A stretch of 64,000 bases of DNA from Candidatus Bathyarchaeia archaeon (GTDB lineage Archaea; Thermoproteota; Bathyarchaeia; Bathyarchaeales; Bathycorpusculaceae): positions 1 through 64,000 of the forward strand of contig JAVYWL010000002.1 in the NCBI GenBank assembly GCA_038727135.1, in the 5' to 3' direction. Both the position numbers and the translations under genes were made by a program. The stretch's first letter is position 1. Each line of letters starts with the position of its first letter. Positions 32,671-56,579 of this stretch are shown here, in pieces. The notes under the pieces were generated by a model, which saw only the letters and a list, made by a program, of their open reading frames with translations, was not told the origin of the DNA and searched no databases.

Positions 32671-33981
32671 TTATTTCAGTTTCTTTAATGCCTCTCTCGC
32701 TTTTTCAACCGTGTAATGGATGTCATCCTCTGTGTGGGCAGCTGAAATGTGGCATCTCTTGTTAGGTTTCGGCAGGATAAAGACTCCACTTTTCATCATT
32801 TCCCTTTGAAACTTCATGAAAAGCTCATTATTAGAGAATGTGTCCCTATAATTGGTGATTTGCTTCTTCGTAAATACTATTTGGAAGATGGACCCAAAGC
32901 CCACAACTTGAGCTTCAATTTTTAATTGGTCAATGACTTCGTTGAGTTCATTTCTAATTTCCTCTCCAAGCTTAAAGAGATGCTTGTGCGCCTCATTCCT
33001 CTCCAACTCTTCTATCGTTGCAAGGGTGGCAGCCATGGATACGGGATTGCTGTTGAAGGTGCCTCCATAGTCAACATTACCCGTAGGCCTAAAATATTCC
33101 ATGATTTCTTTTCTTCCACAGACTGCCGCCACGGGGAATCCGTTTGCCATGGCTTTAGCGAATGTTGTTAGGTCTGGCGTGACGTTGAAGATTTTTTGGG
33201 CTCCACCCAAGTGATGACGAAAGCCGGTAACCACCTCGTCAAAGATTAATACGATTCCATATTCTTCGGTGATTTCCCTCAAAAATTTTAGGAAACCCTC
33301 CTTTGGAGGAATGCAGGTGGCGCTGCCATGGAGAATCGGCTCAGTTATTAGTGCCGCTATCTCATCGTGGTGCCTCCTTATTGTTTTTTCCACAATTTCT
33401 TGGTCATTAAAGGGGACGACAATTACCTGCTTTGCCGTTTCTGGGGGGATGCCTGCTGTGTCCGGAACTGGATTTGGGTGTTCTACTGGTCCTGCCTCTT
33501 TTAGTGTTGGGTTTGTGCTGAAGGACACTATGTCGTGCCATCCATGGTAGGCACCCTCAAATTTTACAATTTTGCTTCTGCCAGTGTAAGCCCTTGCTAA
33601 TCGTATAGCGTGGTAAGTGGCTTCCGTTCCCGTATTACAAAATCTGATCATTTGGGCTGAGGGGACATGAGCCGCAATTTTCTTGGCAACTTCAACCTCC
33701 AACTCGTTACAGAGACCATAAATCACGCCTTTATCCAACTGCCTTTTAACGGCGGCTGAAACTCTCGGATGGGTGTGTCCCAAGATTACTGGTCCAAAAG
33801 CCAGATGATAATCTATGTACTGGTTGCCGTCCGCATCCCAAATCTTTGAGCCTTTAGCCATTGATATGAAAAGGGGGTAAGGTTCAAAATACCGTAGTGC
33901 GCTGTGGACGCCTCCAGGTGTAAGTTTTCTTGCCTCTTCAAAAAGCATCTTTGACCTTTCTGTCCCTTTCATGCTTATCAT
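32671..33981 (-). CDS. Class III PLP aminotransferase, GSA-aminomutase/3-aminobutyryl-CoA aminotransferase-like
   Basis: WDADGNQYIDY, GTEAT, FEGAYHG, FDEVVTGFR, FAKAMANG, GTFNSNP; overlaps the BKACE gene. Confidence 0.88.
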   Translation of the reverse strand: MISMKGTERSKMLFEEARKLTPGGVHSALRYFEPYPLFISMAKGSKIWDADGNQYIDYHLAFGPVILGHTHPRVSAAVKRQLDKGVIYGLCNELEVEVAKKIAAHVPSAQMIRFCNTGTEATYHAIRLARAYTGRSKIVKFEGAYHGWHDIVSFSTNPTLKEAGPVEHPNPVPDTAGIPPETAKQVIVVPFNDQEIVEKTIRRHHDEIAALITEPILHGSATCIPPKEGFLKFLREITEEYGIVLIFDEVVTGFRHHLGGAQKIFNVTPDLTTFAKAMANGFPVAAVCGRKEIMEYFRPTGNVDYGGTFNSNPVSMAATLATIEELERNEAHKHLFKLGEEIRNELNEVIDQLKIEAQVVGFGSIFQIVFTKKQITNYRDTFSNNELFMKFQREMMKSGVFILPKPNKRCHISAAHTEDDIHYTVEKAREALKKLK

Positions 33982-34811
33982 CTCAAGATTTTTTGGGGGA
34001 GTCCGAGGAGTTTTCTAGCCTCGCTGGGGGTGGCTATTTCTATGCCCAGCTCCTTTGCTATTCTAACAACCTTAGCCACTAATTCGGCATTGCTTTTGGC
34101 TAGGACGCCCTTGGCGAGGTAGATGTTGTCTTCCATTCCAACTCGGACGTCTCCTCCCAAAATCATTCCAAGCGTTAGAAGTTTAAATTGAACTTTGCCA
34201 CCGACGGCTATGACGTTCCACCTACAGTTTTGCGGTAAAGCCTTCACCATATGCATGAGGTTTTCCGGCGTAGCCGGAATCCCGCCCCTAACACCCAAAA
34301 CTAGTCCAAACCTAAGGGGTTCTTTTAATAACCCTTTTTCAAACAATTGAAGTGCCAGGTTTATGTGTCCAACATCATAGCATTCAATTTCTGGTTTTAT
34401 GTTTCTCTCAAGCATCATTTTCGCAATTTTTTCCACAACATCTGGGGGGTTTAGGAATACGCTGTTGCCGAAGGTCATGGTGGCCACGTTAAGCGATGCA
34501 AATTCAGGGTTTAGCTCAAGGGCGCACATCCTTTGCTCCAAAGAAATTCCATAGGGTCCACCGCCTCCTGTGGTAAGTTGAATAATCATGTCACATTTTT
34601 CTCTGATTCTTTCAACAACTTCGCGGTACAAATTAACGTCTGGGTATGGTTCCTTGGTTTTTGGGTTTCTAACGTGTATGTGAGCGACTGCTGCTCCAGC
34701 TTCGTAGGCTTTCACAGCTTCTTCGGCTATTTGCTCTGGGGTTATTGGCAGGTAAGGTGTCTCCTTCCACATTGGACCAGAACCTGTTGGAGCTACCGTT
34801 ATTATCATCAT
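33978..34811 (-). CDS. Beta-keto acid cleavage enzyme (BKACE/DUF849, Kce family)
   Basis: ITVAPTG, LPITPEQIA, HIHVR, TTGG, PEIECYD, RVGMEDN, SNAELV. Confidence 0.93.
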   Translation of the reverse strand: MMIITVAPTGSGPMWKETPYLPITPEQIAEEAVKAYEAGAAVAHIHVRNPKTKEPYPDVNLYREVVERIREKCDMIIQLTTGGGGPYGISLEQRMCALELNPEFASLNVATMTFGNSVFLNPPDVVEKIAKMMLERNIKPEIECYDVGHINLALQLFEKGLLKEPLRFGLVLGVRGGIPATPENLMHMVKALPQNCRWNVIAVGGKVQFKLLTLGMILGGDVRVGMEDNIYLAKGVLAKSNAELVAKVVRIAKELGIEIATPSEARKLLGLPQKILR

Positions 34812-34970
34812 GTTTTATCACAACACTACTCTTTGCCACTAGATGCCATAAACTTTGTCTTTTAGCTAAGGAGTGCAATTTTTATGGTCACTAAAAAATA
34901 AACTATAGGTTGAAAATCAATAACAAAGCTTAAAAAGAAATCCAAATGTAACTGAAGAAAGGGGAAGGTT

Positions 34971-36563
34971 TTGGCTGAAGTTAAGTTCGCCTTCCCAAGA
35001 AAGGCGACAGGGCTTGTCAGAGAATTAGGCTGGTGGTCAGCATTCTCCGTTTCCCTCAGCTACACCATTGGCAGCGGAATAAACTATTGGTCTGTGCAGG
35101 CTGCATATTGGCATCCAGGCTCAATAATCCCACTTGCATACATTATTGGCGCTTTACCAGCGATCTTCTTGGCCTACGTGATTACCGAAATGGGAATAAT
35201 GATGCCTAGGTCCGGAGGAAGTTACATATACGTATCAAGAGTGTTAGATCCTCACGTAGGCTTTCTAGGAGACTGGTTATACTTCGTAGCCAACAACTTT
35301 GCTACCGGAGTGTTGGCTGTAATCGGCGCTGGATTCTGGGTTAAAATGATTAACCTGCTGGGTTATGCCACCAATAATCCTGACTGGATTGCCTTCACGC
35401 TGGACAATGTGGGGTTAGGCATAATAGCCGTAGTAATAGTTACGATTTATACGCTGTTGTCATTGCTGGGCATAAGAGTGTTTAGATGGTACGTAGCGGG
35501 ACTAGTTGCCATAGGCATAGTAGGAAGCTTTCTCGGGGTTGCCGCCACCTTCTATGGAATTATGAATCCGGCTTACGTGAAGGAAGCTTGGAATTTAACG
35601 TATGGTGCAGGTTCATGGGAACAAGTGCAACAAGTAGCCATAGACAATGGTTGGGCTGATTATGTTACAACCGCCACCAAAGAGGCTGGCGGCACCGGGG
35701 GAGCAACCATACTCAATTTCGTGGACACTTTCTGGGCATACTGGGGAACAACAGCGGCATGCTATTTCGGCGGAGAAATGAAATCTCCAAAGACAGGCTT
35801 CATAGTGGGCGTTTTTGCCGCCACACTATTCGTAATGTTCTGGTATGTCTTAACAGTCATCGGCGTATATACAGCCTACGGAGACTTTGTCAGCCAATAC
35901 TGTTACGTCTATGGAGAAGGATACACGGATCAGGTGACAGCGATGACTATGTTGGATCCAAGTTTACCACTATTCACAGTGCCACTAGCGCATGGGCAGG
36001 TTTGGCTTCAAGCAATATTTGCCTTTATTCCAGCCATGTGGATTTCCAACTGCTCAGGGTCAACTCTACTTGTGGGTCCAAGGCAACCTTTCGCATGGGC
36101 CTTTGACAGATTCTTCCCAGAAGCCTTCAACCGCGTGAATGAGCGTTTCCACTCACCCCACTGGGCAATCATATTGACTGCGTTGATCGCCTACTTATTC
36201 ATACCATTAAGCCTCGGCAACGTTTTCGTGGCAACAGTGGATGCAACATTCATCTTCATCCTCAGCCAACTTCTCATAGCCTTTGCAGGTGTAATATTGC
36301 CTTATAGACGCCCGGACATCTGGGAGAGAGGGTTTAAGGCCACCTTTGCCGGCATACCAGTAATAAGCTTATGTGGCGCCTTAGCAATCTTCTTCTGGAC
36401 TTGGGGATTAGCAGTAGCTGCATCTTGGCTAACCGCTTGGGGAATGGCCTACTTGGCCTTATGGGTTTTCGTTGGCTCCCTCATATGGTTTGCTTATGCA
36501 GAGCGCAACAGAAGGATAGGCATTGCACTACAAGACATATATGGTGAAATACCACCAGCGTAA
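34971..36563 (+). CDS. APC-family amino acid/amine permease
   Basis: RKATGLVRELG, MPRSGGSYIYVSR, GGEMK, R..FAWAFDR..P, ~12 TMs. Confidence 0.9.
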   Translation: MAEVKFAFPRKATGLVRELGWWSAFSVSLSYTIGSGINYWSVQAAYWHPGSIIPLAYIIGALPAIFLAYVITEMGIMMPRSGGSYIYVSRVLDPHVGFLGDWLYFVANNFATGVLAVIGAGFWVKMINLLGYATNNPDWIAFTLDNVGLGIIAVVIVTIYTLLSLLGIRVFRWYVAGLVAIGIVGSFLGVAATFYGIMNPAYVKEAWNLTYGAGSWEQVQQVAIDNGWADYVTTATKEAGGTGGATILNFVDTFWAYWGTTAACYFGGEMKSPKTGFIVGVFAATLFVMFWYVLTVIGVYTAYGDFVSQYCYVYGEGYTDQVTAMTMLDPSLPLFTVPLAHGQVWLQAIFAFIPAMWISNCSGSTLLVGPRQPFAWAFDRFFPEAFNRVNERFHSPHWAIILTALIAYLFIPLSLGNVFVATVDATFIFILSQLLIAFAGVILPYRRPDIWERGFKATFAGIPVISLCGALAIFFWTWGLAVAASWLTAWGMAYLALWVFVGSLIWFAYAERNRRIGIALQDIYGEIPPA

Positions 36564-36570
36564 ACTTTAG

Positions 36571-37269
36571 TTACCCACCTTTTTCTTTAATTTTGGCATC
36601 AACTATTGCAAGGTAATACCCATGCAAAATTCCAGGTTTCTTAATCACCCTTATCCCTTCATAATCAATCCTCTGCAGCTTAATCTTATAATCTTCCGGT
36701 TTTAACCCATACTTCTCAATGGTTGATTTCAATTTGTCAATGTGATGTTGAACAGCCTCCTTTAACCTTCTCTTTGTAGCTTCCTCCTCTTTGACGCCGC
36801 CTTCCTCGGCAATTTTTTTAAGCTCATATTTTGTTAAGCTCAACATAAGCAAAGTTACATCCGCTAGGATGAAAAGCAAAATTATGCTTGGGAAGGACAA
36901 GAAAGTCCAATAAATCCATATAAAACCGGGAGGAAAAGTTACGCCCCTCTGCAATAAAATGGCTAAAACAACCACAATCATGAAATAGATTAATGTGACA
37001 AAATTTAAGATCTTGTTTACCCTTATCATTTTTCTAAGCTTGCCAGACTGCCCTATTTTCTTCAAAACTTTTTGGGTTTCTTTACTGAAGTATTTCAGAT
37101 ATGCCGAGTTTAAACTGACCGTTTTGGTTTTCGCCAACAACTCTTTTGGATCGTGAATTGAAGCGCTTCTTAAACCATCAAAGTAGCTAATTACAGAAAC
37201 CAGCTCACTCGATATTTTCTGAGCCTTCTTTACATCCTCCTCAGTCCATTTCACTCTAGCCGACCCCAA
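36571..37269 (-). CDS. Hypothetical 2-TM membrane protein
   Basis: 232-aa ORF, two central TMs; co-oriented downstream of the NTase gene. Confidence 0.7.
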   Translation of the reverse strand: MGSARVKWTEEDVKKAQKISSELVSVISYFDGLRSASIHDPKELLAKTKTVSLNSAYLKYFSKETQKVLKKIGQSGKLRKMIRVNKILNFVTLIYFMIVVVLAILLQRGVTFPPGFIWIYWTFLSFPSIILLFILADVTLLMLSLTKYELKKIAEEGGVKEEEATKRRLKEAVQHHIDKLKSTIEKYGLKPEDYKIKLQRIDYEGIRVIKKPGILHGYYLAIVDAKIKEKGG

Positions 37270-37332
37270 ACCTTACACTAACAACATTAGTACAAATGTG
37301 TAGGATAAGATTATTAAGACTTAGTTGGGAGT

Positions 37333-38121
37333 TTACAACCTAACTTCTTTATACCACTTTTTCTTTGTTCCAACTTGTGCTCTCTTCAACCAATCCTTGG
37401 TTTTGGGCTCCTCATCAATATACTTCAAGATTTGGTCGATCTTTGAGGTCACATCGGCAATATCTTCTGCAGTAAGTTGCTGGTACATGGGGCAGGCAGC
37501 CCTAACCTTTTTCAAGTTGGTTGTGGCTGTGTACCAGAATCCCCAATCGTTTGCAAACAGCTTAGCCATGTATTTGGCATTAATTGTTTCCGGCGCGTCA
37601 GTATCGCCAATTTTGTGGTCCCTCAGGAGGACTATGACGTCTTTGGCGTCTTTCTCTGTGAATTCCACTATTTCCAGTTTGGTTAGCAGCAAGTCGACCA
37701 ATGAGGCTGTTGGATAGTCTAGGTGGAACCTGTTTCGAAAGTCTACCTTGTGGCATAGATCTAACGCGTCATAGAAAATGTCAATGTCAACTTTCCCTCT
37801 ATAAACCTGGCGATTTCTCGTTCCAACACCACTTGTGAAGAAAAAGATGTAGGAGTCGAACTTCCAACCCCTCGTCTCAAAAAACTTTCTGATTTTCGCT
37901 CTTTCTTTATCCGGGGCGACAAAATCTATGTCTGGAAACTCTTGTCCCTCAATTCTCTTCAGCCTTTTGTGAAGGTCAATTGCCATGGGAGACGAGTGAA
38001 TTCTAATCGCTGGGCCGCCTATCAGCCTTAACGTGAGCCCTTCCTTTTTTGCCTCCTCCACTAAGTCTATGGCCAGTTTTACAATTTCCTCGGATGGCAC
38101 TTGCTTCTTTTCCTTCTCCAT
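37333..38121 (-). CDS. Uncharacterised Pol-beta-superfamily nucleotidyltransferase-like protein
   Basis: LRLIGG.A..H, DIDFV, third Asp in DIDIF, DLLLTKL..EKD..D. Confidence 0.75.
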   Translation of the reverse strand: MEKEKKQVPSEEIVKLAIDLVEEAKKEGLTLRLIGGPAIRIHSSPMAIDLHKRLKRIEGQEFPDIDFVAPDKERAKIRKFFETRGWKFDSYIFFFTSGVGTRNRQVYRGKVDIDIFYDALDLCHKVDFRNRFHLDYPTASLVDLLLTKLEIVEFTEKDAKDVIVLLRDHKIGDTDAPETINAKYMAKLFANDWGFWYTATTNLKKVRAACPMYQQLTAEDIADVTSKIDQILKYIDEEPKTKDWLKRAQVGTKKKWYKEVRL

Positions 38122-38124
38122 TAA

Positions 38125-39084
38125 TCATCCCTCCACCTTCCACCATTTCTCAATGCCATCTTTTGTGAGGTCGATGATGAAGCCTCTAAGCACCCCTTCG
38201 CTGTATTCTGAACCGGGGTTTATGGCTAAGGTTTTTCCTATATAGTCTGAAGCATAGGATTCATGGATGTGACCGTGCAAACTTAAGAGGGGCTGATTCT
38301 CCTCAATAAATCTTCGTATGGCTTTGCTGCCTACATTATCATAAATTATTCTTCCTAGGAAGACAACTGGCTTCAAGTTCTTATCCAGTTTTGGAGCCAA
38401 ATCCAGTTTGGTGCAATATGGTGGACAGTGGAAATTTAGGATAACTTTCCTCCAGTCGCCGGAGAACATGTTCTTTATCCTTTCCAGCTTTTTCCATAAC
38501 TCCTCTTCTGGAGCCTCTCGAGGCGTGTCCCATGGTGTAGGGTTAACCCATTCAAAACTTAGCATTTCATAGTCTAGGCATATGTTGACAACCTTTTCCA
38601 GCGGGTATATAACACGGTCCTCGTGGGCCTTTATCAATTCGTCAATTTCAAATGAGTCGTCATTTCCAGGCATCATAACAACGGTGACGTCTTTGGGCAG
38701 TTTTTCATCAATCATGTTAAGCCATCTTTGAAGTCTCTCTTTCATGTAACCGCGGAATAATTCGTCAACCCTTTTTGGATTCTTCATAAGCTCGTCATAC
38801 TCGTCTTGGCTGCAAACATGAGTGTAAAATCCGCTGAAAGTAATCTTATCAATTAGCTTTTTTAGTTCGTCTTCGCCGCTGGCGTTTATCCATCGCCCAT
38901 AAACCATGGTCTTGTATCGGCCGGGGCTTTCCTCAATTATTGGTATTATGAGTTTTCCAGTTAAATCTCCACACAACAATAGAACATTTGCCTTATACAC
39001 TTTGGGGATTGAGAGCCACTTTCGCCAAACCATTTCGCTTCCGTGTATGTCTACGGCATGAAAGAGTCTAACTTTTTCAGCCAT
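38125..39084 (-). CDS. Calcineurin-like metallophosphoesterase (Icc-related)
   Basis: DIHG, GDLTGK, PGNDD, HCPP, HGHIHE, INPGS. Confidence 0.9.
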   Translation of the reverse strand: MAEKVRLFHAVDIHGSEMVWRKWLSIPKVYKANVLLLCGDLTGKLIIPIIEESPGRYKTMVYGRWINASGEDELKKLIDKITFSGFYTHVCSQDEYDELMKNPKRVDELFRGYMKERLQRWLNMIDEKLPKDVTVVMMPGNDDSFEIDELIKAHEDRVIYPLEKVVNICLDYEMLSFEWVNPTPWDTPREAPEEELWKKLERIKNMFSGDWRKVILNFHCPPYCTKLDLAPKLDKNLKPVVFLGRIIYDNVGSKAIRRFIEENQPLLSLHGHIHESYASDYIGKTLAINPGSEYSEGVLRGFIIDLTKDGIEKWWKVEG

Positions 39085-39215
39085 TGCAAGACCTAGGAAA
39101 TGCTTTACCCTTATCGTATATTTACCTTACTCTTTTTAAAGCAACATCAAGGTTCACTTCTGAAAATTTTATATGCAAATACATGCAATTTGATTTGATA
39201 CTCAAGGTGGAATCT

Positions 39216-39866
39216 ATGAAAGAAGAAGTCCTAAATAAACTGATGAACGCGGTCCTAAGCTATGACCCGGAAGCCGCTGTTAAAGCTGCGGAAGAAGCCC
39301 TCCAAAAAGGCGTAGACCCCGTTGAGGCCATTGAAGAAGGTCTAGCCAAAGGGGTAAGAATTGTCGGAGAGCGGTTCGGCGCCGGAGAAGCCTTTTTAAC
39401 AGAGCTTGTAATAGCCGCGGAAGCCATGAAACAAGCCCTAAAAGTTCTCGAACCTGCAATTCTAAAAAGCGCTAGAGAAAAGAAAACTCTAGGCAGGGTT
39501 CTTATAGGCACGGTGGAAGGAGATATCCACGACATTGGAAAGAACATTGTAAGTACGCTTCTCATGGTGGCCGGCTTTGAGGTTATAGACATAGGAGTTG
39601 ACGTTCCAACCGAAAAGTTCGTAGAGAAAGTTAAAGAGGTTAAACCAGACATAGTTGGAATGTCCGCCCTAATGACCACCACTATGGCCAAAATGGCAGA
39701 GGTTATAGAAGCCCTAAAACGTGAAGGACTACGCGAAAAAGTTAAAGTGATAATAGGCGGGGCTCCCACATCCAAGAAGTGGGCCGAAGAAATAGGCGCC
39801 GACGGCCACGGCGGAGACGCCATAGAAGCTGTTGAAGTGGCAAAAAAGCTGGTGAAAGCCGCATAA
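39216..39866 (+). CDS. Corrinoid (cobalamin-binding) methyl-carrier protein, MttC/MtgC type
   Basis: Cap domain F.GEAFLTEL, GDIHDIGKN (DxHxxG), SALMTTT, IGGAP; ATG 39216 behind AGGTGG. Confidence 0.94.
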   Translation: MKEEVLNKLMNAVLSYDPEAAVKAAEEALQKGVDPVEAIEEGLAKGVRIVGERFGAGEAFLTELVIAAEAMKQALKVLEPAILKSAREKKTLGRVLIGTVEGDIHDIGKNIVSTLLMVAGFEVIDIGVDVPTEKFVEKVKEVKPDIVGMSALMTTTMAKMAEVIEALKREGLREKVKVIIGGAPTSKKWAEEIGADGHGGDAIEAVEVAKKLVKAA

Positions 39867-41368: not shown

Positions 41369-41418
41369 AAAGCTTATTAAAAACTTTGTTTGTTAAACGT
41401 TTCAAAAGGAGGAAAATT

Positions 41419-48196: not shown

Positions 48197-48990
48197 TTAA
48201 ATCAAGTAATTTTTTAAACCTTGCCTGTGCCTTAATATCAGCCTTTATGATAACTCCAGTAGCCTTAATTTTTATAACATCTCTTGATCCAGCTAAGTAC
48301 ATACGGTTTCCTCCATCGGGGTTTTCGCTGTTATGGTATGAGTATTTTTTTTCGAACAAAATGTGGCAAGATGCTCTCCTTAATAGTATTTATGTAGCAG
48401 TTTTAAACACCGTTATCTCTGTTCCATGTGGAATTATGGCAGCCTACGCGTACAGAAAATATCCTTTTACCAAGTTGAAAAATATATTTAATACAATTAT
48501 GATAATTCCATATGTAACTCCAAGTTTGTTAATTGGAATTGCACTTTTGATGGCCTTCGGTCAAACAATCCTTAGAGGAACCTATTTTATGGTCGCAATT
48601 GCCCATGCATTATGGTCAACATCCTTTGTTTATATTCTTATGCAAGCTGCTTTAGCAAACTATGACTTTACATATGAAGAAGCAGCGAAAGATCTTGGAG
48701 CTAATCTGGTTCAAGTATTTTCCGAAGTTACATTACCTCTTTTAAAGAGTGCCCTCATAGCGGCAATTCTCTTTGCCTTTATTTCATCATTTGGTGAAGT
48801 AACTATGGCTATTTTTTTGGTAACAAACAAAACAATCACCCTACCAGTTCTTTTATGGACATCACTAAAATATGAATTACATCCAGTAGCAACTGTTGCT
48901 TCAGTGATCTGCATCATTTTCGCAATTGTTATATTTGTATTAATTACTAAATTTTTTGGAACTGGAATATTAACTAAAATCGGGATGTAA
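48181..48990 (+). CDS. ABC transporter permease (PotC-like)
   Basis: FPPSGFSL.WY, EEAAKDLGA, SFGE, TLP. Confidence 0.9.
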   Translation: MGKTIIKSSNFLNLACALISAFMITPVALIFITSLDPAKYIRFPPSGFSLLWYEYFFSNKMWQDALLNSIYVAVLNTVISVPCGIMAAYAYRKYPFTKLKNIFNTIMIIPYVTPSLLIGIALLMAFGQTILRGTYFMVAIAHALWSTSFVYILMQAALANYDFTYEEAAKDLGANLVQVFSEVTLPLLKSALIAAILFAFISSFGEVTMAIFLVTNKTITLPVLLWTSLKYELHPVATVASVICIIFAIVIFVLITKFFGTGILTKIGM

Positions 48991-48992
48991 AA

Positions 48993-50072
48993 ATGGAGAT
49001 AGCAGTTGAGACAAGAAATATAACTAAAAGATTCGAAAAAGGTAAGGTTGTAGCTCTCGACAATGTCTCTATTTACGTTAAAAAAGGTGAAATTTTTACT
49101 TTACTAGGTCCCTCTGGGAGTGGAAAATCTACTCTCTTAAGGATTATTGATGGATTGGAACAGCCCGATAGTGGTGATGTTTTTATAGATGGCAAATGCG
49201 TCACCTATGTTCCTGCACATAAACGAGACGTATGCATGGTTTTCCAAAGACTTGCACTTTTTCCTCACAAAAACGTATTTGAAAACGTAGCTTTTGGTTT
49301 GAAAATGCGTAAATTTGATAAGAATGAAATAAAGAAAAGGGTTGAGGAAACTCTTTGGAAAGTTGAACTTGACCCAGAAATTTACACCTCGCGCTTTCCG
49401 CATCAGTTAAGTGGAGGAGAAATGCAACGCGTTGCGTTGGCAAGAGCAATAGTTTTACGTCCAGCTGTAATACTTTTTGATGAGCCTTTATCCAGCCTTG
49501 ATAGACGTTTGCGCGATAAAATGCGTGTAGAATTAAAACAGTTATTAAAAAAGTTCAATATAACAGCTATTTATGTGACCCATGATCAGGAGGAAGCTTT
49601 CGTTATTTCCGATAGAATGGCTGTAATAAATAAGGGTAAAATCGTTCAAGAGGGAACTCCACTGGAGCTTTATGAGAAACCGCAATCAGCCTTTGTTGCA
49701 AATTTCCTAGGTGATACTAACATTTATAAAGGAGTTATAAAGCAAATAAAAGGCAACTTAGTGATTATAGAACTTCAAGGAGGAACATGTATAACTGCCA
49801 AATATGCGGATGCCCCGTCTATTTCAAGAGATGTTTTGGTATCTTTAAAAGCTGAGAAAATTGTTTTGTCTGATCGGCCTTTATTCGAAAACCATTTAGA
49901 AGCTGTAATAAGGGATGTTATATTCATGGGTGAAAAAATCATGTATATAGTTGAGGTGAGTAAAGAGTTAACGCTAAAAGCATTTGAAAAAAATTTTGGT
50001 AAGATTTGGCGTAAAGGAGGCAAGGTGCTAGTAAATTGGCTTCCAGACGACGTAGCACTTATCCCAGGGTAA
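48993..50072 (+). CDS. ABC transporter ATP-binding protein (PotA-like, TOBE domain)
   Basis: GPSGSGKS, LSGGEMQR, FDEP, VTHDQEEA. Confidence 0.93.
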   Translation: MEIAVETRNITKRFEKGKVVALDNVSIYVKKGEIFTLLGPSGSGKSTLLRIIDGLEQPDSGDVFIDGKCVTYVPAHKRDVCMVFQRLALFPHKNVFENVAFGLKMRKFDKNEIKKRVEETLWKVELDPEIYTSRFPHQLSGGEMQRVALARAIVLRPAVILFDEPLSSLDRRLRDKMRVELKQLLKKFNITAIYVTHDQEEAFVISDRMAVINKGKIVQEGTPLELYEKPQSAFVANFLGDTNIYKGVIKQIKGNLVIIELQGGTCITAKYADAPSISRDVLVSLKAEKIVLSDRPLFENHLEAVIRDVIFMGEKIMYIVEVSKELTLKAFEKNFGKIWRKGGKVLVNWLPDDVALIPG

Positions 50073-50327
50073 TTTCTGTTTTAAGCTTAAAGTTTCAGCA
50101 AAATATCTCACTTTCTTATGTATAACAATTAAATGTTTCATTTATATAATTCTTCAACGCTAAAGCTACGATATCACCTCAAATTCAAACATTTGAATTT
50201 TATTAAGCTTAAATTGTTTAGCGACGCTATTAAGTAAAGCTTTATATTACTTATCTCATTTTAACAGTGGACTAAAGCTGTAGGAGATTCTATACAAGTT
50301 TTTATGTTGATTTTCACAATTTGTTTT

Positions 50328-51353
50328 TTATTCCAATTTTAGTTTTGGATAGTACCCTAAAACTTCTTGGTTAACTACATGTTTAGGTTTGATACATTTG
50401 TAAAACCTTATTATTTCTTCACATGCCATTTTTCGAACATTTATGATTGATTCCTCGCTGTACCATGCTATATGAGGTGTGATGATGACGTTTTTAAGCT
50501 TCAAGAACGGACTATTTTTATCAAGAGGTTCTTTTTCAAAAACATCTAAGGCAGCTGCATAAATGGTGTTGTTTTGCAACGCTTCATATAAAGCTTCTTG
50601 ATCCACTATCGCTCCGCGGGATACATTTATCAACATTGCCGTTTTTTTCATTAAGTTAATTCTTTTTTTGTCTATTAAATGATAGGTCTCTTTCGTGAGT
50701 GGGCAATGGATTGAGATTATATCAGAAGCTTTTAATAGGTTGTCTAAATCAGCTTGCATAACTCCAGAATCTTTGAAGATTACATCTGGCAAATATGGAT
50801 CATAAACAAGAATCCTTAAACCAAGGGACTTAAGTTTTTTGGCTACTTCCATTCCAATTCTTCCAAATCCAATGATTCCAGCCGTCTTCCCGCTTAGTCT
50901 ATAAATCGGACTGAAACGTTTCCAGTCCGTCCTAAAATTCGCCTTTCCTTTTTTTGTATAATAGTCGATCCATGGAATTTTTCTAGCTAAAGCAAAAATT
51001 AAACTTAAAGTATGCTCAGTTACTTCAACTGTGCAATAGTCTGGGATATTGCATACTATTATCCTCTTTTTTGTTGCTGTTTTTAAATCAATATTGTCAT
51101 ATCCAACAGCCAAGCGGACGATTAAGCGTAAATTTTTCAGAGATGATAATATTTTTTTATTTAAAGGTAGCAGGTTGCTGATAATTACATCCGCATCCCT
51201 TGCAACATTCAAAATCTCACTATCGTTTTTACACCTAAAAGATTTTATTTCCGCGTTTATTTCTTTTAAGGCTTCTTTCTCAAGGGAGACGTCATCAAAT
51301 GGATTATCCACCATTACAACTCTAATTCTATCTACATTCATTGTATCAATCAT
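50328..51353 (-). CDS. D-2-hydroxyacid dehydrogenase (CtBP/SerA-like)
   Basis: VGYDNID, GIIGFGRIG, HCPLT, NVSRG, LDVFEKEP, TPHIAW. Confidence 0.92.
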   Translation of the reverse strand: MIDTMNVDRIRVVMVDNPFDDVSLEKEALKEINAEIKSFRCKNDSEILNVARDADVIISNLLPLNKKILSSLKNLRLIVRLAVGYDNIDLKTATKKRIIVCNIPDYCTVEVTEHTLSLIFALARKIPWIDYYTKKGKANFRTDWKRFSPIYRLSGKTAGIIGFGRIGMEVAKKLKSLGLRILVYDPYLPDVIFKDSGVMQADLDNLLKASDIISIHCPLTKETYHLIDKKRINLMKKTAMLINVSRGAIVDQEALYEALQNNTIYAAALDVFEKEPLDKNSPFLKLKNVIITPHIAWYSEESIINVRKMACEEIIRFYKCIKPKHVVNQEVLGYYPKLKLE

Positions 51354-51616
51354 CTAGTTCGTTAAGTGCAACAAAAATATAATTTTTGCTGACCGATTCT
51401 CGCGTACGTAATCGTGTTTTAACTTGGTGGTTACCTTTTCTTATTCGCAAATCTTTAAGGACAGGTTTCCTAACCTATAACCGTAAGCTACAATCTTGTT
51501 TTCCGGATTTTAGACTAAAGGTCACTTGTAATGTTTACATTTTAATCTTACATAGAGGCTCAATTCAGTAAAATTTATATCTTCTTAAAAAAACATAACC
51601 AAAGAATGGTGATACA

Positions 51617-52741
51617 ATGAAATTGGTATTTAAGTATGTGTCGGTCTTTATTTTGGGGATTATAATCGGGGCAGCATCGATATACCTTATCTACCAGCCT
51701 CAAATGGTCAAAACCACCGAGTATAAAGTTGTCAGTGAGTTTGAATACTTACGACAGAAGTTTCAAGGAATGACTTTAAGGGTTACTGCTTGGAGCGGAC
51801 CGTATGCGGAAAACTTTAGGTGGGCAATTGTTGAACCCTTTGAAGATTTAACCGGCGTAAATATTGAATTAGTTATTGGTTGGGCGGAATTTATACCTAT
51901 GTTACAAGCGGCTCCTCCGGACCAGCCACCATTCGACGTTTTTAATCTCGATGATTATAATTTTATTGCTGCAAAAAACCTGGATAAGCTTTTACCATTG
52001 AATTTATCAAGGATTCCTAATGCCCAATATGTATACTCATGTTTAAAACAAAAGAGAGAAGAGTGGAAATCAGGACTCGCCATACCATTTGATGGAGGCT
52101 TGTATACCATAATTGTGAACAGGGAGGTTGTGCCATTTGAAATCACTTCCTGGGCGGATTTAAAGCGCCCAGAACTTAGAGGCTTAATTGCAATGGATCG
52201 AACTTGGTATTATGGGCTCTATGTAGGTGCGTTAATGTTAGGTCATAAGTACTTAAATGATACAAACGTAGATGCAGCGTTTGCAGAAATTGCTAGTTTA
52301 AAAGATAGCGTTCACGTGTGGTACACTTCAGGAGCAGAAGCCCTTCAACTCTTAGAATCAAAGGAGGTGGGTGTAGCGATTTATTACACTGGGGGTGCTT
52401 ATGACGCCATCAAAAGAGGGGAACCGTTAGAAATAGTCATTCCTAGGGAAGGAGCAATAGCCTGGCTTGGATCCCTAAGTATAGTGCGTGGGGTGTCACC
52501 GGAAATTCGGGAACTTGCAGAAGCGTTTATTAACTTCGCGCTAAGTCCCGTTAGTCAATCGAGACATGTCACAAAATCCGGTAATTTTGTGTGCGGGGAG
52601 TACGCAAAGGTTCCGAAAGACCAATACTTTAATCCTGCAAGCAACGAAGAAATGGATAAAATGGTGTTCTTTGACTGGGAGTGGCTCGAGCAACACTGGA
52701 CAGAACTAGAAAATCGATGGAATACAGAAATTTTAGGCTAA
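51617..52741 (+). CDS. ABC transporter substrate-binding protein (PotD/PotF-like)
   Basis: N-terminal anchor TM, WSG, SWADL..PEL.G, IPREGA, FINFALSP, RWN. Confidence 0.85.
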   Translation: MKLVFKYVSVFILGIIIGAASIYLIYQPQMVKTTEYKVVSEFEYLRQKFQGMTLRVTAWSGPYAENFRWAIVEPFEDLTGVNIELVIGWAEFIPMLQAAPPDQPPFDVFNLDDYNFIAAKNLDKLLPLNLSRIPNAQYVYSCLKQKREEWKSGLAIPFDGGLYTIIVNREVVPFEITSWADLKRPELRGLIAMDRTWYYGLYVGALMLGHKYLNDTNVDAAFAEIASLKDSVHVWYTSGAEALQLLESKEVGVAIYYTGGAYDAIKRGEPLEIVIPREGAIAWLGSLSIVRGVSPEIRELAEAFINFALSPVSQSRHVTKSGNFVCGEYAKVPKDQYFNPASNEEMDKMVFFDWEWLEQHWTELENRWNTEILG

Positions 52742-52935: not shown

Positions 52936-54393
52936 ATGATTGGTTTCTCCAGAGATGATCAAAAAATAAAAATCAGAATTTTTTCTCGATCTGAGTTGGA
53001 AGCTATTCATTGGGCTACGCTGGATATTCTTGAGAGAACTGGTGTTAAGATATACAGTGAAAAATGTCTAAAAATCCTCGAGGAGGCTGGTTGTAAGGTA
53101 GATTACAAAATGGGGTGTGCATTAATTCCCTCCGAGGTCGTTGAAGAGGCTTTAAGAAAGAAAAAAAGTGTATTTAGGTTGTGTGCCAGAAACCCGAAAT
53201 ATGACTTGAAGCTAGATGGCAGACATGTGTACATAACCACGGATGGCAACGCGGTAAACACTCTGGATTTTGAGACTGGGGAAAGAAGGGCTTCAACAAA
53301 AGATGACATTGCTAAGTCAGCCACCATCGCAGACGCGCTTGACTCTGTTGGCGTTTATTGGCCAATGGTCACCTCCTCAGATGTGCCTGCGCCCATTCGA
53401 CATTTGCACGACTTAGAAGCATCTTTAGCCAATACTGAAAAGCACGTTCAACTTGAAACAATAGTCAAACCAAAAGTAGCCCGTTATGCAGTTGAAATTG
53501 CAGCGGCTGTGGTTGGAGACACAAAAAAGCTCAGGGAACGCCCAATAATATCCTCTCTGCATTGCACCATATCGCCCCTCCAACATGAAGGGGGATCCAT
53601 TGAAGCAGCATTAGAATTTGCCAAGGCAGGTATACCCGTATCCTTTTATGGAATGCCACAAGCAGGTGCCACCAGCCCAGTAACGCTTGCAGGAGCAGTC
53701 GTTATTAATAACGCCGAAGTTTTAAGTGGCCTTGTAATAGTGCAACTTGTGCATCCAGGAGCACCAGTGATATATGGCACTGGCGGCGCTGGTTTTGACA
53801 TGAAAGCGGGCACTTGGACAGGGGGATCACCAGAACGGGCGCTAATTTCGGCAGCCGCGGGGGAGCTGGCTAAATACTATAATATGCCATCTCTTGTGGG
53901 AGGTTTTGTTACATCCGCCAAAACTATCGACGCACAAGCATGTTATGAAAAGCTCATCAGCGGCATCCCCCAAGTTCTTTCCGGATGCGACATAATTGCT
54001 GGAATAGGCCTCATCGACAACTGCAATACCCTTTCGTTTGAGCAGCTTCTGATAGATGATGAAATCGTTAACATGACTTTTCGCCTTGTTGAAGGCATAG
54101 AAGTGAAAGAACAGACAATAGCACTCGACCTGATTCAAAAAATTGGTCCCGGGGGCAATTTCTTGGCTGAGAAGCATACACTTGAATATTTGCAGAAAGA
54201 ACACTTCATTCCAAAATTAACTGATAGACGCTCTTATGAGGCCTGGCTTAAAAATGGCGCAAAGGACATCACAAAGAGGGCAAAAGAAAAAGTTAAAACA
54301 ATCCTCCAACAACATCAACCACAACCCCTGCCAAAAGAAACTCGAACGGAAATACAAAATATCATTGGACGTGCAGAAAAAGATATGATTTAA
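52936..54393 (+). CDS. MttB-family (COG5598) corrinoid methyltransferase, non-pyrrolysine; close paralog of 39911..41368
   Basis: Same length (485 aa); shared HVYITTDGN, TKDDIAKSA, YWPMV, RHLHDLE, AQACYEK. Confidence 0.92.
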   Translation: MIGFSRDDQKIKIRIFSRSELEAIHWATLDILERTGVKIYSEKCLKILEEAGCKVDYKMGCALIPSEVVEEALRKKKSVFRLCARNPKYDLKLDGRHVYITTDGNAVNTLDFETGERRASTKDDIAKSATIADALDSVGVYWPMVTSSDVPAPIRHLHDLEASLANTEKHVQLETIVKPKVARYAVEIAAAVVGDTKKLRERPIISSLHCTISPLQHEGGSIEAALEFAKAGIPVSFYGMPQAGATSPVTLAGAVVINNAEVLSGLVIVQLVHPGAPVIYGTGGAGFDMKAGTWTGGSPERALISAAAGELAKYYNMPSLVGGFVTSAKTIDAQACYEKLISGIPQVLSGCDIIAGIGLIDNCNTLSFEQLLIDDEIVNMTFRLVEGIEVKEQTIALDLIQKIGPGGNFLAEKHTLEYLQKEHFIPKLTDRRSYEAWLKNGAKDITKRAKEKVKTILQQHQPQPLPKETRTEIQNIIGRAEKDMI

Positions 54394-54400
54394 AGGTGAA

Positions 54401-55669
54401 GTGTTTATGCTTGTCGAAGGCTTGAAATGTATAAATTGTGGAGAAATATTTCCTCCCGAACCAAAATTTTTTGTCTGTCCAAAATGCGGCGTCGAAAAGG
54501 TTAGAGGGATAACAGTTTTCAAGGGCATAACAGAGGTCGTGTACAACTACGAAGAGATGGGAGAAATCATAAGTAAAAAACTGTTTTCCCAGAGACCTTT
54601 CAATGCCCTAAGATACATGGAACTATTGGGTTTTCGAAAGGAAGAAAGGTTAATAACGTTAGGTGAAGGTGGAACCCCGCTACTGAAAAGCGGGAAGCTA
54701 GCTGAAAGGCTTAAAGTTAAAAATCTACTGTTGAAAATTGAGGCTCAGAATCCAACGGGCTCTTTTAAAGATCGTGAAAGCCTCTTAGCCGTGAATAAAG
54801 CCTTACAGTTTGGAAAAAAGAGCGTGTCGTGCGTTTCATCTGGGAATGCTGCTGCTTCTCTGTCGGCTTATGCAGCCAGAGCTGGACTAGACTGTTTTGT
54901 TTTTATGCCCTCAACTGCTTCGAAGGGGAAGATTTCTCAATGTTCAGTTCACGGAGCCAAAACTTTTCTTGTGGACGGGATTTATGAGGAAATCTTTGAG
55001 GTTTACTTAGAGGCGGTTAAGGACTTGGACATTTTCGAGTCTTGCCCGGGACACAACAGGTTTAGGGTGGAAGGCGACAAGACGATCAGTTATGAAATAT
55101 GTGAACAGTTGGGATGGAAAGCACCCGACTGGGTTATAGACAATGTTGGTAACGGCACCCACTTGTATGGCATGTGGAAAGGCTTCAAAGAGCTAAGGGA
55201 CCTGGGCTTCATAGACAATTTGCCGAAAATGGTTGCCACCGGACCAGTTGGCGGGGCGCCAATAGTTGACGGTTTCAAGAAGGGCGAGGCTGCACCTTTG
55301 GAAAGTTGCGAGGAATCCATAGCTGAGGGTTTGGTTAGCAGGTGGAGTTATGATGCTCCCTTGGCTCTTAAAGCATTAAGAGAGTCCGGAGGAAACGCAG
55401 AGTACGTCTCAGACAATGAGATTTTAAAGGCTATGAGTTTGTTGGCTCGTCTTGAAGGAGTATTTGCAGAACCGTCTGGTTCAGCTTGTATCGCCGTCCT
55501 TCCAAAACTCGTTGAAGCCGGCATTATTGATTGTAAGGACGAGGTTGTATGCCTAATAACTGGAAACGGGCTTAAAGATCCAAAAAGCGGAAGACGAATA
55601 TCCAAAAAGCCAATCGACGTACCGCTTAGCGTCAGGGAAATTAAGGAATTTTTAAGGCGTTTTTCTTGA
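54401..55669 (+). CDS. thrC: Threonine synthase-like fold-type II PLP enzyme
   Basis: N-terminal CxxC..CxxC, LGEGGTPL, NPTGSFKDR, SSGNAAAS, EPSG, ITGNGLKD. Confidence 0.8.
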   Translation: MFMLVEGLKCINCGEIFPPEPKFFVCPKCGVEKVRGITVFKGITEVVYNYEEMGEIISKKLFSQRPFNALRYMELLGFRKEERLITLGEGGTPLLKSGKLAERLKVKNLLLKIEAQNPTGSFKDRESLLAVNKALQFGKKSVSCVSSGNAAASLSAYAARAGLDCFVFMPSTASKGKISQCSVHGAKTFLVDGIYEEIFEVYLEAVKDLDIFESCPGHNRFRVEGDKTISYEICEQLGWKAPDWVIDNVGNGTHLYGMWKGFKELRDLGFIDNLPKMVATGPVGGAPIVDGFKKGEAAPLESCEESIAEGLVSRWSYDAPLALKALRESGGNAEYVSDNEILKAMSLLARLEGVFAEPSGSACIAVLPKLVEAGIIDCKDEVVCLITGNGLKDPKSGRRISKKPIDVPLSVREIKEFLRRFS

Positions 55670-55685
55670 AGCGAAGGGGGAAATT

Positions 55686-56579
55686 ATGAGTTTATTTTTC
55701 GGAGCTGAAACAAAAAACAAAGATGATGCAAACGCCTTTGTTCTTGGTTTATGTTGGGATAAAAGCTCATCCTTTAGGAAAGGCTCCGCTAAAGCCCCAA
55801 AAGCCATCAGAGAATACACAAGCTCAAAAATATACAACCCTTTCACCGAAAACAACGTGAACCTTAAGGATCACTGGAAAATTTACGATTTAGGCGATAT
55901 AGCACCCGCATCAATCATAAAGGCTTTTGAAATGGTGAAAGATGTTGTTAGCAAAAATGCCGATTCCAAATTGCACATTTTCCTAGGAGGAGACCACAGC
56001 ATCACATACGCTACGTTAAAGGCTTTAAAAGAAATCTCAAAAGTTCCTTGGGGTTTGATCTACTTTGACGCCCACCCCGACTTATACGAGAGCTATGATG
56101 GAGATTTATACTCACATGCATGCACCGTGAGGAGGATAGTTGAAGAGGGCATCGTTAATCCTCATTATATAATTCAAGTTGGCATAAGGGCATCCACGGC
56201 CGAGCAGACGGCTTATGCCAAAAAAGCCAAGATAAAAACTGTAACCACATCTGAAGTTTATAAAAATGCAGAGAAAATTTCCTCCTTCATAAACGAAGCC
56301 TTGGGCAAGGTTGAAAACGTGTACGTATCCCTAGACGTTGACGTCCTAGACCCTGCGTTTGCTCCGGGAGTCGGCAACCCTGAAGGTGGAGGAATAACGC
56401 TGCGAAACCTTATAGACATAGTCCATAACCTAAAAAGATTAAACATAAAGGCCTTGGACGTGGTTGAAGCGAATCCAAATTATGATTACGCAGGCGTAAC
56501 CTTCTGCAGCATATCAAAATTCATCAGAGAATTCTTAGGAACCACTATAAAGCCACACGCACGGCAACCATGGCCATAG
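55686..56579 (+). CDS. speB: Agmatinase-like ureohydrolase
   Basis: SFRKGS..AP, GGDHSIT, DAHPD, SHAC, DVDVLDP, PEGGG, DVVE. Confidence 0.85.
   Translation: MSLFFGAETKNKDDANAFVLGLCWDKSSSFRKGSAKAPKAIREYTSSKIYNPFTENNVNLKDHWKIYDLGDIAPASIIKAFEMVKDVVSKNADSKLHIFLGGDHSITYATLKALKEISKVPWGLIYFDAHPDLYESYDGDLYSHACTVRRIVEEGIVNPHYIIQVGIRASTAEQTAYAKKAKIKTVTTSEVYKNAEKISSFINEALGKVENVYVSLDVDVLDPAFAPGVGNPEGGGITLRNLIDIVHNLKRLNIKALDVVEANPNYDYAGVTFCSISKFIREFLGTTIKPHARQPWP

Follow-up and report, generated by a model that had tools for sequence, protein, structure and literature searches.

A strain-variable genomic island of non-pyrrolysine MttB-family genes and recurrent partner enzymes in a hot-spring genus of Bathyarchaeia

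Introduction

Gene clusters that combine mtrH, mttB and corrinoid protein genes, in some cases with ramA, have been published for non-methanogenic archaea, namely Culexarchaeia (PMC9723716) and Atabeyarchaeia, Freyarchaeia and their TACK relatives (PMC11291895), and in the consulted parts of these papers the methyl groups are proposed to enter the tetrahydromethanopterin (H4MPT) or tetrahydrofolate (H4F) branch of the Wood-Ljungdahl pathway. According to the portions consulted of two further papers, mttB genes have already been reported from Bathyarchaeia as well (PMC10321748, PMC8407382). Here we describe a block of about 24 kb, extending from approximately position 32620 to 56590 of contig JAVYWL010000002.1 of a Candidatus Bathyarchaeia archaeon (assembly GCA_038727135.1), in which four MttB-family genes without pyrrolysine (Pyl) lie together with two corrinoid protein genes, an mtrH-like gene, and genes for partner enzymes and transporters. 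The window that we analysed is the first 64,000 nucleotides of this contig. We find that the block is an accessory, strain-variable island, a mosaic of modules, and we consider it probable that it serves methylotrophy in a hot-spring Bathyarchaeia genus, with its modules acting as such and not as one linear pathway.

Two described systems frame the comparison. In MtgB, glycine betaine is contacted by Y97 and F356 through cation-pi interactions and by R312 and H348 at its carboxylate, and the arginine equivalent to R312 is conserved in MttB members with known acidic substrates, as stated in the consulted part of the report (PMC13080624). Carnitine catabolism in Pseudomonas, as far as the available text of the source goes, involves a dehydrocarnitine cleavage enzyme of the beta-keto acid cleavage enzyme (BKACE) type (PMC12482172). 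Non-Pyl MttB genes are widespread in uncultured archaea, and the known substrates of the family are limited to a few bacterial and methanogen enzymes.

Results

The methyltransferase genes are clustered in an accessory island

The source genome (G000; the window is its C2:1-64000) comprises 1.55 Mb in 7 contigs and is 94.7% complete, a figure that applies to each search of G000 reported here. The core of the island (METHYLTRANSFER) holds 4 of the 5 MttB genes, both MtbC-like corrinoid protein genes and the only MtrH gene of G000 within 15 kb of the 1.55 Mb, and this clustering of MttB, corrinoid and MtrH genes is beyond chance. We refer to the island MttBs as MttB1 to MttB4, to the corrinoid proteins as CorrA and CorrB, and to the class III and class I aminotransferases as AT3 and AT1; the remaining genes are named in Table 1.

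Relatives were compared by tblastn of the window proteins against fetched regions of their genomes. G001 to G013 are the other members of the genus, which thus has 14 genomes with G000, and higher numbers denote a wider sample; the class-level comparison covered 401 Bathyarchaeia genomes, 103 of them from the same family as G000. At least part of the island was found in five of the 14 genus genomes (G000, G001, G002, G003 and G013). In the island-free genomes G005, G009, G011 and G012 the flanking genes are kept at 74-98% amino acid identity with no island gene beside them, and in G005 an empty spacer of about 200 bp separates the response-regulator gene from tRNA-His. The order of G000 is retained from left to right flank in G003, at 91-99% amino acid identity, minus the genes for the PotBCA importer, the D-2-hydroxyacid dehydrogenase (2-HADH), the solute-binding protein (SBP) and MttB4. 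In G013 the PotBCA-2HADH-SBP module is instead placed between the CorrA and metallophosphoesterase genes and MttB4 is absent; G001 lacks MtrH and carries MttB4 as a decayed remnant; and the left part of the island lies on a short contig in G002. Synteny across relatives had been proposed as a check in a preliminary description of this DNA, and it gave a divided answer: the block is co-conserved in island carriers, whereas the ABC importer/2-HADH module, MttB4 and MtrH vary between strains. At G013:C40:6711-8586 two in-frame stops interrupt the ThrC-like gene and the ureohydrolase gene is split over two frames, which represents either decay of the pair or an assembly error.

The segment from PotB to the SBP has a guanine-plus-cytosine (GC) content of 0.359 versus 0.445 genome-wide, and values that low occur in just 0.6% of 5.4-kb genomic windows; the GC content of the remaining island matches that of the genome. 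MttB matches were present in 10 of 61 relatives (G000 included). Among the 13 other genus genomes they occur in four, G001, G003, G013 and, as a 41-residue fragment at a contig edge, G011. At class level MttB was found in 105/401 genomes, yet in only 4/103 of the family to which G000 belongs. Hot-spring metagenomes from about 10 studies contain the island core, and a scan of genome contigs with MttB4 as the query returned four loci.

The block had been described as bounded by tRNA genes, a claim that did not survive the comparison. Its first gene lies 1.06 kb from the tRNA-Lys gene, with two genes between them (31764-32141 and a response regulator, 32146-32613), and because both of these are also kept in island-free relatives the tRNA-Lys is not a boundary. 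At the other side, the right end of the G003 island lacks tRNA-His. Profile scans of window open reading frames (ORFs) of at least 100 residues revealed no integrase or transposase families, and no repeats were found at the junctions when these were aligned with the empty site of G005. A tRNA-targeting integrative element was therefore rejected: there is no integrase and no junction repeat, and the island lies 5' of tRNA-His.

The island MttBs lack pyrrolysine and the betaine contacts of MtgB

The four island proteins belong to the MttB superfamily (PF06253/COG5598), with PF06253 scores of 310-359 bits against a cut-off of 25, and their uninterrupted ORFs encode 470-491 residues. At the position that aligns with Pyl of the Methanosarcina enzyme, MttB1 and MttB4 have Val and MttB2 and MttB3 have Leu. 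None of the four genes contains an in-frame UAG, and the best match to PylS in G000 scored 30 bits against a cut-off of 178. The reading of these proteins as Pyl-free MttBs is thus borne out, and we rejected the alternative that they are genuine pyrrolysine-containing trimethylamine MttBs on the grounds of the Val and Leu residues at the Pyl site and the lack of a PylS over the cut-off. The Rfam model PYLIS_3 matched within MttB3 (46179-46278, minus strand) with 57 bits against a gathering score of 38, and weaker matches of about 23 bits occur at the corresponding place in MttB2 and MttB4. A pyrrolysine insertion element in MttB3 was rejected, as a UUA (Leu) codon stands at the UAG of the model and the match reflects similarity of coding sequence. 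Elsewhere in the class, MttB matches of Bathyarchaeia family f24 contain exactly one in-frame TAG (G098:C62, G151:C50, G144:C31, G280:C31 and G309:C28) and may be of the genuine pyrrolysine type.

We compared the pockets in an alignment of 125 MttB sequences, consisting of the five G000 paralogs and 120 relatives listed from 1431 homologs at E≤1e-30; these 120 carry generic names only. MttB, MtgB and 4yyc were the only members of the family found in the PDB. None of the five paralogs retains any of Y97, R312, H348 and F356 of MtgB at the aligned positions, on a mapping by sequence alignment in which MttB4 is the sole paralog aligned directly to MtgB. In the order MttB4/MttB1/MttB2/MttB3/MttB5, the MtgB-contact columns read G/G/S/G/G, C/C/E/E/G and L/I/H/A/D, and the remaining contact corresponds to a gap in MttB4. 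The arginine equivalent to R312, by which the characterised acidic quaternary-amine members MtpB, MtcB, MtyB and MthB would be recognised, is absent from all 125 aligned sequences. As judged from this alignment, the island MttBs represent three deep clades that differ in their conserved pocket signatures. The signature is Gly/hydrophobic/Val/Cys in the MttB1/4 clade and Ser/His/Leu/Glu in the MttB2 clade (10/10 sequences), and the MttB5 clade has Gly/Asp/Asp/Gly in 9/10 sequences, the remaining one ending in Ala.

MttB1 and MttB4 are 66% identical to each other, versus 34-40% for other pairs of paralogs. The closest metagenome relatives of MttB4 share 83-86% identity with it and are nearer than MttB1; MttB4 is therefore not a recent local duplicate. 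All five paralogs are about equidistant from the PDB entries for MttB and MtgB (245-307 bits), MttB1 for example scoring 307 bits against MttB and 246 bits against MtgB. The preliminary description had allowed that all four enzymes might act only on glycine betaine; with all four betaine-contact residues replaced, the island MttBs do not appear MtgB-like, and their substrates are probably neither glycine betaine nor other acidic betaines.

The fifth paralog, MttB5, is encoded outside the island (G000:C4:104681-117999) and lacks a corrinoid protein of its own; the genes with it there encode an M20 peptidase, an Amidohydro_3 enzyme and a Dpp/Opp-type peptide ABC importer. The MttB5 trio is 80-87% identical in G031. 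This context points to a peptide-like or acylated methylamine substrate, the demethylation of which would rely on the island carriers.

A corrinoid methyl-transfer gene set in a genome with CdhC and Mch

CorrA and CorrB are 63% identical, and both have the DxHxxG motif and a B12-binding_2 cap followed by a B12-binding domain, features by which they are assigned to the MtbC/MtgC-type corrinoid proteins. The MtrH-like gene, the single match in G000, passes NF002142 (316>287) and TIGR01114 (285>271) and falls below the MtgA equivalog (281<550); here and below, scores are in bits, with 537>525 meaning above and 474<527 meaning below the cut-off of the model. A RamA-type activase is encoded about 40 kb from the island (G000:C2:96071-97963), and in three metagenome relatives RamA is itself an island gene, placed between MttB2 and MtrH.

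G000 encodes CdhC and Mch; MCR-alpha and FTHFS were not found there. From the presence of Mch and the failure to find FTHFS, H4MPT would most likely be the methyl acceptor, and CODH/ACS (carbon monoxide dehydrogenase/acetyl-CoA synthase) the likely sink. A corrinoid methyl-transfer system running from MttB over a corrinoid protein to MtrH, as had been suggested, is consistent with this gene set in a non-methanogen that has CdhC and Mch. The further suggestion that it feeds the methyl branch of the Wood-Ljungdahl pathway stands as regards CdhC and Mch, but not as regards the full methyl-branch route, since neither Mer (TIGR03555) nor MTHFR (PF02219) was found in G000. Despite the presence of CdhC and Mch, no recognised enzyme was found in this genome for the step from methylene- to methyl-pterin.

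ThrC-like genes are linked to corrinoid methyltransferase genes

The strongest partner link to corrinoid methyltransferases, across many lineages, is that of the ThrC-like gene. A metagenome scan yielded 42 ThrC-like loci at ≥63% identity, 30 of which carry a gene for MttB, a corrinoid protein, a URO-D-family protein or MtrH. At 85% identity these loci form 12 clusters, 11 with such a gene; at 95% identity they form 27 clusters, of which 22 have a methyltransferase-system gene and 24 have either such a gene or the module of APC permease, nucleotidyltransferase-like (NTase-like) protein and metallophosphoesterase (Metallophos). As controls, no methyltransferase-system genes were seen beside ThrC relatives at 31-35% identity (0/4) or beside paralog loci at 41-47% identity (0/8, with flanks of only 1.5 kb).

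Outside the genus, ThrC-like orthologs of >60% identity were found in the class sample only in G102, where an MttB2-like gene precedes the ThrC-like gene, and in G246, where the order is URO-D, ThrC-like, corrinoid, URO-D. MttB2 orthologs at 64-67% identity adjoin ThrC-like orthologs in metagenome contigs. Several gene orders recur besides the genus-like one: the NTase-like gene (unk262), Metallophos, APC, MttB and an MttB2-like gene ahead of ThrC-like; ThrC-like ahead of unk262, Metallophos, APC and MttB, with or without an intervening corrinoid gene; and URO-D followed by ThrC-like, once with glycine-cleavage genes next. The ThrC-like, APC permease, NTase-like and Metallophos genes thus form a recurrent set with MttB2-type or URO-D-type methyltransferases, and in G001 the APC/NTase-like/Metallophos module is also found beside a second MttB cluster. 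Paralogous copies of this module are found at G000:C1:80716-86384 and G000:C2:122977-126384, one of them beside a 2-HADH paralog. On metagenome contig L064:1-9024 two URO-D genes and the ThrC-like gene are followed by genes for glycine-cleavage proteins P1, P2 and T and a phosphoglycerate-mutase-like enzyme, which hints that the product of this variant is glycine or a phospho-acid.

The partner enzymes are island-specific paralogs

The possibility had been raised that the enzymes encoded beside the methyltransferases are housekeeping orthologs. AT3, AT1, the ThrC-like enzyme and the ureohydrolase are instead island-specific paralogs, and BKACE is single-copy in G000 (no second copy by tblastn). 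Orthologs of AT3 at ≥90% identity occur only in G003, G013 and G002, and a separate HemL-like copy, 45-47% identical to AT3, was listed in 11 of the 14 genus genomes, G000 among them (at G000:C2:112933-114168); two more genomes have partial matches at 45-46%. AT3 passes NF000818 (473>398) and falls below TIGR00713 (474<527); a role as housekeeping HemL was rejected on this score, on its confinement to island carriers and on the genus-wide copy. AT1 has orthologs of ≥91% only in G003, G001 and G013, and all carriers, as well as 8 genus-like metagenome loci, have it within the MttB3-CorrB operon.

The island ThrC-like gene is the third ThrC-family gene of G000. Its genus orthologs, at ≥88% identity, are confined to G003 and G013, and another ThrC copy with an open frame of about 475 residues, 38-41% identical, was listed in 12/14 genus genomes. 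The protein scores 245 bits against threonine synthases in the PDB and passes TIGR00260; since it occurs only in island carriers, a housekeeping threonine synthase was rejected. The same holds for the ureohydrolase as a housekeeping agmatinase (SpeB): TIGR01230 is passed, but orthologs beyond G000 were found only in G003 and, in two pieces, in G013. A different ureohydrolase, 35-36% identical, was listed in 10 of the 14 genus genomes, including all seven with ≥90% completeness.

BKACE falls below the Kce equivalog NF052387 (330<382), and the KamA family (TIGR00238) was not found in G000, where the controls worked. An origin of the BKACE substrate in lysine fermentation was rejected on these two results, the upstream enzyme KamA being the one not found. 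In two other genera of the family (G031 and G032), BKACE (45-47% identical), MttBs, RamA, a corrinoid protein and MtrH are encoded within 15 kb in another order, together with M20 peptidase, amidohydrolase and saccharopine-dehydrogenase-like genes; an AT3 ortholog (72%) was seen in that cluster in the G031 stretch only. At class level, BKACE is present in 103/401 genomes. In G134 and G220 BKACE and MttB share one large contig at a distance of at least 75 kb, in a comparison that scored at most three MttB candidates per genome.

Gene content of the block

Genes were inventoried by ORF listing with Pfam and NCBIfam profile scans, and RNAs with Rfam and ARAGORN (Table 1). The genes named in the preliminary description (four MttB, two corrinoid, MtrH, partner and transport genes) are all present, but its inventory had omitted three minus-strand genes at 36571-39084. 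Of these, the one for the 232-residue protein is kept at 87-94% identity in island carriers. The true start of CorrA is Met45 of a longer ORF (39084-39866). Genes are spaced by gaps of 1, 7, 16 and 25 bp and one 4-bp overlap, which indicates the predicted operons BKACE-AT3 (4-bp overlap), CorrA-MttB1-MttB2-MtrH, MttB3-CorrB-AT1 (1 and 25 bp) and MttB4-ThrC-like-ureohydrolase (7 and 16 bp). At the start of the window, positions 1-748 hold the 3' portion of an archaeal 16S rRNA gene (Rfam, 803 bits).

Table 1. Features of the island and its edges (window coordinates; scores in bits).
Feature	Coordinates	Strand	Evidence and remarks
Intron-bearing tRNA, loop CUCUUAA fitting Lys-CUU	31511..31612		Rfam match, missed by ARAGORN
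Class III aminotransferase (AT3), HemL-like	32671..33981	-	PF00202 248; 4-bp overlap with BKACE
Beta-keto acid cleavage enzyme (BKACE)	33978..34811	-	PF05853 340.5; PDB Kce 2y7d 208
APC-family permease	34971..36563	+	PF13520 89
232-residue protein with hydrophobic stretch (membrane protein)	36571..37269	-	no family at E≤1e-5
262-residue nucleotidyltransferase-like protein (NTase-like, unk262)	37333..38121	-	protein-atlas features 0.97-0.98 to AbiEii/NTP_transf_5-like clusters
Metallophosphoesterase (Metallophos)	38125..39084	-	PF00149 30; protein atlas 0.98
Corrinoid protein A (CorrA), MtbC/MtgC-like	39216..39866	+	PF02607+PF02310; GDIHDIGK motif
MttB1, non-Pyl MttB family	39911..41368	+	PF06253 333; TIGR02369 537>525
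MttB2, non-Pyl MttB family	41386..42861	+	PF06253 342
MtrH-like methyl-corrinoid:pterin methyltransferase	42943..43848	+	PF02007 304
Class I aminotransferase (AT1)	43940..45115	-	PF00155 263
Corrinoid protein B (CorrB)	45141..45797	-	TIGR02370 228>215; PF02607+PF02310; GDIHSIGK motif
MttB3, non-Pyl MttB family	45799..47220	-	PF06253 310
PotB/PotC/PotA-like ABC importer	47330..50072	+	part of low-GC module 47330..52741
D-2-hydroxyacid dehydrogenase (2-HADH), PGDH-like	50328..51353	-	part of low-GC module
PotD-like solute-binding protein (SBP)	51617..52741	+	part of low-GC module
MttB4, non-Pyl MttB family	52936..54393	+	PF06253 359; TIGR02369 553>525
ThrC-like pyridoxal phosphate (PLP) enzyme with N-terminal CxxC...CxxC zinc-ribbon	54401..55669	+	PF00291 244; TIGR00260 210>167; NF006050 294<303
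Arginase/agmatinase-family ureohydrolase	55686..56579	+	PF00491 238; TIGR01230 193>174
tRNA-His(GUG), right neighbour outside island	56687..56762	+	Rfam / tRNA scan

Contigs of two RNA-Seq metatranscriptome runs from one study cover pieces of island genes at 90-100% identity, touching the genes for the metallophosphoesterase, unk262, CorrA, MttB1, MttB2, MtrH, CorrB, MttB3, the SBP and MttB4. These contigs are a weak hint of island expression, as DNA carry-over is possible. Two further runs, labelled metatranscriptomic whole-genome shotgun and probably of DNA, gave no cover on 47.3-53.9 kb, from which we draw no conclusion; in one contig, 45947-47209 and 54407-55780 are separated by about 5.3 kb of dissimilar sequence.

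Discussion

We favour, as probable, the reading of the block as an accessory island for methylotrophy in a hot-spring genus of Bathyarchaeia, in the form of a mosaic of modules. From the gene set we infer that each of the four non-Pyl MttBs would bind its own methylated nitrogen compound, as family membership suggests, and methylate the Co(I) form of CorrA or CorrB. The methyl group would pass by way of the island MtrH to a pterin, for which H4MPT is the most likely candidate; corrinoid that has become oxidised would be repaired by a RamA-type activase, and methyl-H4MPT could then feed CODH/ACS. The demethylated products would go to dedicated enzymes encoded beside the methyltransferases, with AT1 as a candidate in the MttB3-CorrB-AT1 operon and the ThrC-like enzyme and ureohydrolase as candidates behind MttB4, while the HemL-like AT3 and BKACE may convert a beta-amino acid to a beta-keto acid and this to acetoacetate and an acyl-CoA.

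Several observations weigh against this interpretation. MttB1 and MttB4, and only these two, exceed the cut-off (525) of the 'trimethylamine' model TIGR02369, a model that is blind to Pyl. The pocket residues were mapped by alignment and not by structure. In addition to the failure to find Mer and MTHFR in G000, CdhC occurs in 13 of the 14 genus genomes, with or without the island; as it is present in island-free genomes, acetyl-CoA synthase is therefore not dependent on the island, and CdhC as an island-dependent trait was rejected. Many of the metagenome loci are not independent, having been obtained from a small number of related sample series. One ThrC-like cluster, made up of five loci, shows no methyltransferase gene up to 7 kb away; in the four of these loci that were scanned, a metallo-beta-lactamase-fold gene follows the ThrC-like gene and DUF362 is nearby, and two of the four have an AOR gene. 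The two further APC/NTase-like/Metallophos modules of G000 are without MttB. BKACE and MttB lie within 20 kb of each other only in G000, G013 and G032 among the matches listed for the 401 genomes, and in these matches no linkage was seen outside one family (f1). Finally, module content varies between strains, and the ThrC-like and ureohydrolase genes of G013 look broken, a poor fit to a strictly co-dependent unit.

The preliminary description had envisaged one complete pathway, in which a single N-methylated amino acid or polyamine is taken up, demethylated stepwise by the four MttBs, deaminated and cleaved. In its favour, all the genes share a single 24-kb block and are packed into tight operons, G003 has the block as a co-inherited unit of 91-99% amino acid identity, and the partner enzymes are island-specific. 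This proposal nevertheless seems distinctly improbable and did not hold up in its stepwise form, as the MttBs belong to three deep clades, at 35-40% identity, with differing, clade-conserved pockets and have orthologs elsewhere in other contexts, and the modules vary between strains: MttB4 is absent in G003 and G013, the ABC/2-HADH genes in G003 and MtrH in G001. Moreover, characterised non-Pyl MttBs each take one methyl group off one quaternary amine, according to the parts consulted of two reports (PMC13080624, PMC12155760), and KamA was not found in G000. At the other extreme, only the methyltransferase core (CorrA-MttB1-MttB2-MtrH and MttB3-CorrB) might form a functional unit, with the other genes representing unrelated amino acid catabolism gathered in a flexible spot. 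Modules that move or drop out between strains, the foreign GC content of the ABC/2-HADH module, the wide occurrence of BKACE (103/401 genomes) against an MttB linkage confined to one family among the matches listed, and the existence of APC/NTase-like/Metallophos modules without MttB would all fit such an arrangement. We judge it unlikely, since all carriers and 8 metagenome loci keep AT1 in the MttB3-CorrB operon, ThrC-like orthologs stand beside methyltransferase genes in 11/12 clusters, and G031 and G032 again combine AT3 and BKACE with MttB and MtrH, in a different order.

A biosynthetic system, in which the ThrC-like enzyme would convert a phospho-amino acid to a thiol or an amino acid that then receives a methyl group from the methyl-corrinoid, appears highly improbable. 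ThrC-type homocysteine and cysteate synthases exist, and ThrC-like orthologs often stand directly after genes of the URO-D family, which includes methylcobamide:thiol methyltransferases. The demethylation of glycine betaine is also tied to methionine synthesis in marine bacteria, as stated in the consulted part of one paper (PMC12478193). Against such a function, the ThrC-like enzyme scores 63 bits against a cut-off of 325 for the cysteate synthase model, the island carries importers and catabolic-type enzymes, and it is dispensable in most members of the genus.

A more specific proposal, which we put forward tentatively and hold to be rather unlikely, is that the MttB2-type methyltransferases of Bathyarchaeia and, in other lineages, the URO-D-type ones act with a dedicated and hitherto unnoticed set of partners (the APC importer, the NTase-like activator, the metallophosphoesterase and the zinc-ribbon ThrC-like enzyme) on a new class of substrates without the carboxylate found in the known betaines, and so constitute a new pathway to acetyl-CoA. 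One candidate class would be methylated amino-alcohols or hydroxy-amino acids in phosphorylated or otherwise activated form, for example lipid head groups or osmolytes; after demethylation, the activating group would be lost in an elimination catalysed by the ThrC-like enzyme. A theme of phosphate-ester chemistry links the metallophosphoesterase, the NTase-like protein, the ThrC-family enzyme and the PGDH-like dehydrogenase; it is a lead only, drawn by analogy with the phosphocholine/MthK system of Eubacterium limosum as described in the consulted part of its report (PMC12155760). If true, this proposal would define a new catabolic pathway that joins such compounds to acetyl-CoA synthesis in non-methanogenic archaea.

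The locus provides archaeal MttBs that lack the betaine-binding residues of characterised members, in a system that is a strain-variable add-on within one genus. The recurrent partner set of ThrC-like enzyme, NTase-like protein, metallophosphoesterase and APC permease narrows the chemical search space. This gives a short list of proteins for substrate discovery and makes non-methanogenic methylotrophy in Bathyarchaeia directly testable.

Like the published archaeal clusters, as far as these are described in the text consulted, the island combines non-Pyl MttB, an MtbC-like corrinoid protein and a stand-alone MtrH with no MCR. It differs from them in having four MttBs of three clades in a strain-variable island with RamA encoded elsewhere, and in its co-operonic AT1 and ThrC-like genes, BKACE and AT3, and the APC/NTase-like/Metallophos set, partners that go unmentioned in the consulted parts of those reports. 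With the MtgB/MtgC/MtgA system of Desulfitobacterium hafniense (PMC13080624, consulted in part; PDB 2qne, 9yce) it has the three-component logic and the protein families in common, the MttBs scoring about 245-270 bits against MtgB. Unlike that system, the island MttBs are without the four betaine contacts, the second methyltransferase (MT2) is of the MtrH type and under the MtgA cut-off, and FTHFS was not found. In Methanosarcina MttB/MttC (PDB 7xcl), to which the island MttBs score 249-307 bits, the differences are the absence of an in-frame UAG and the Val or Leu at the Pyl site in our proteins, with neither PylS nor MCR found in G000.

The E. limosum phosphocholine system, MthB/MthC/MthA with the kinase MthK, has an accessory enzyme that phosphorylates the substrate before demethylation, in the part of the report consulted (PMC12155760), and the island resembles it in carrying phosphate-ester-type accessory genes (metallophosphoesterase, NTase-like, ThrC-like). 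The likeness is one of described gene functions; no MthK-like kinase was identified, and the accessory families differ. As in the BKACE pathways of Kce and of carnitine, the latter a quaternary-amine precedent in the available text, BKACE stands beside an enzyme able to yield a beta-keto acid, but its island partner is a HemL-like aminotransferase and not a dehydrogenase, and the Kce cut-off is not reached. Threonine synthases are the best PDB and NCBIfam matches of the ThrC-like enzyme, which differs from them by its tie to corrinoid methyltransferase genes. The statement that no characterised archaeal pathway has this combination of genes needs amending in one respect: the core mtrH-mttB-corrinoid cluster has been published, while the partner set was not found in print by a small literature search; the MttB clades described here may already be named in trees and gene tables that supplement the cited papers. 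One paper, on the comparative genomics of Methanomassiliicoccales, came up for threonine synthase together with MttB, and the one paper found for BKACE together with corrinoid proteins treats them as separate pathways. Set against these systems, the methyltransferase core belongs to a kind of cluster already published, and its partner set appears new.

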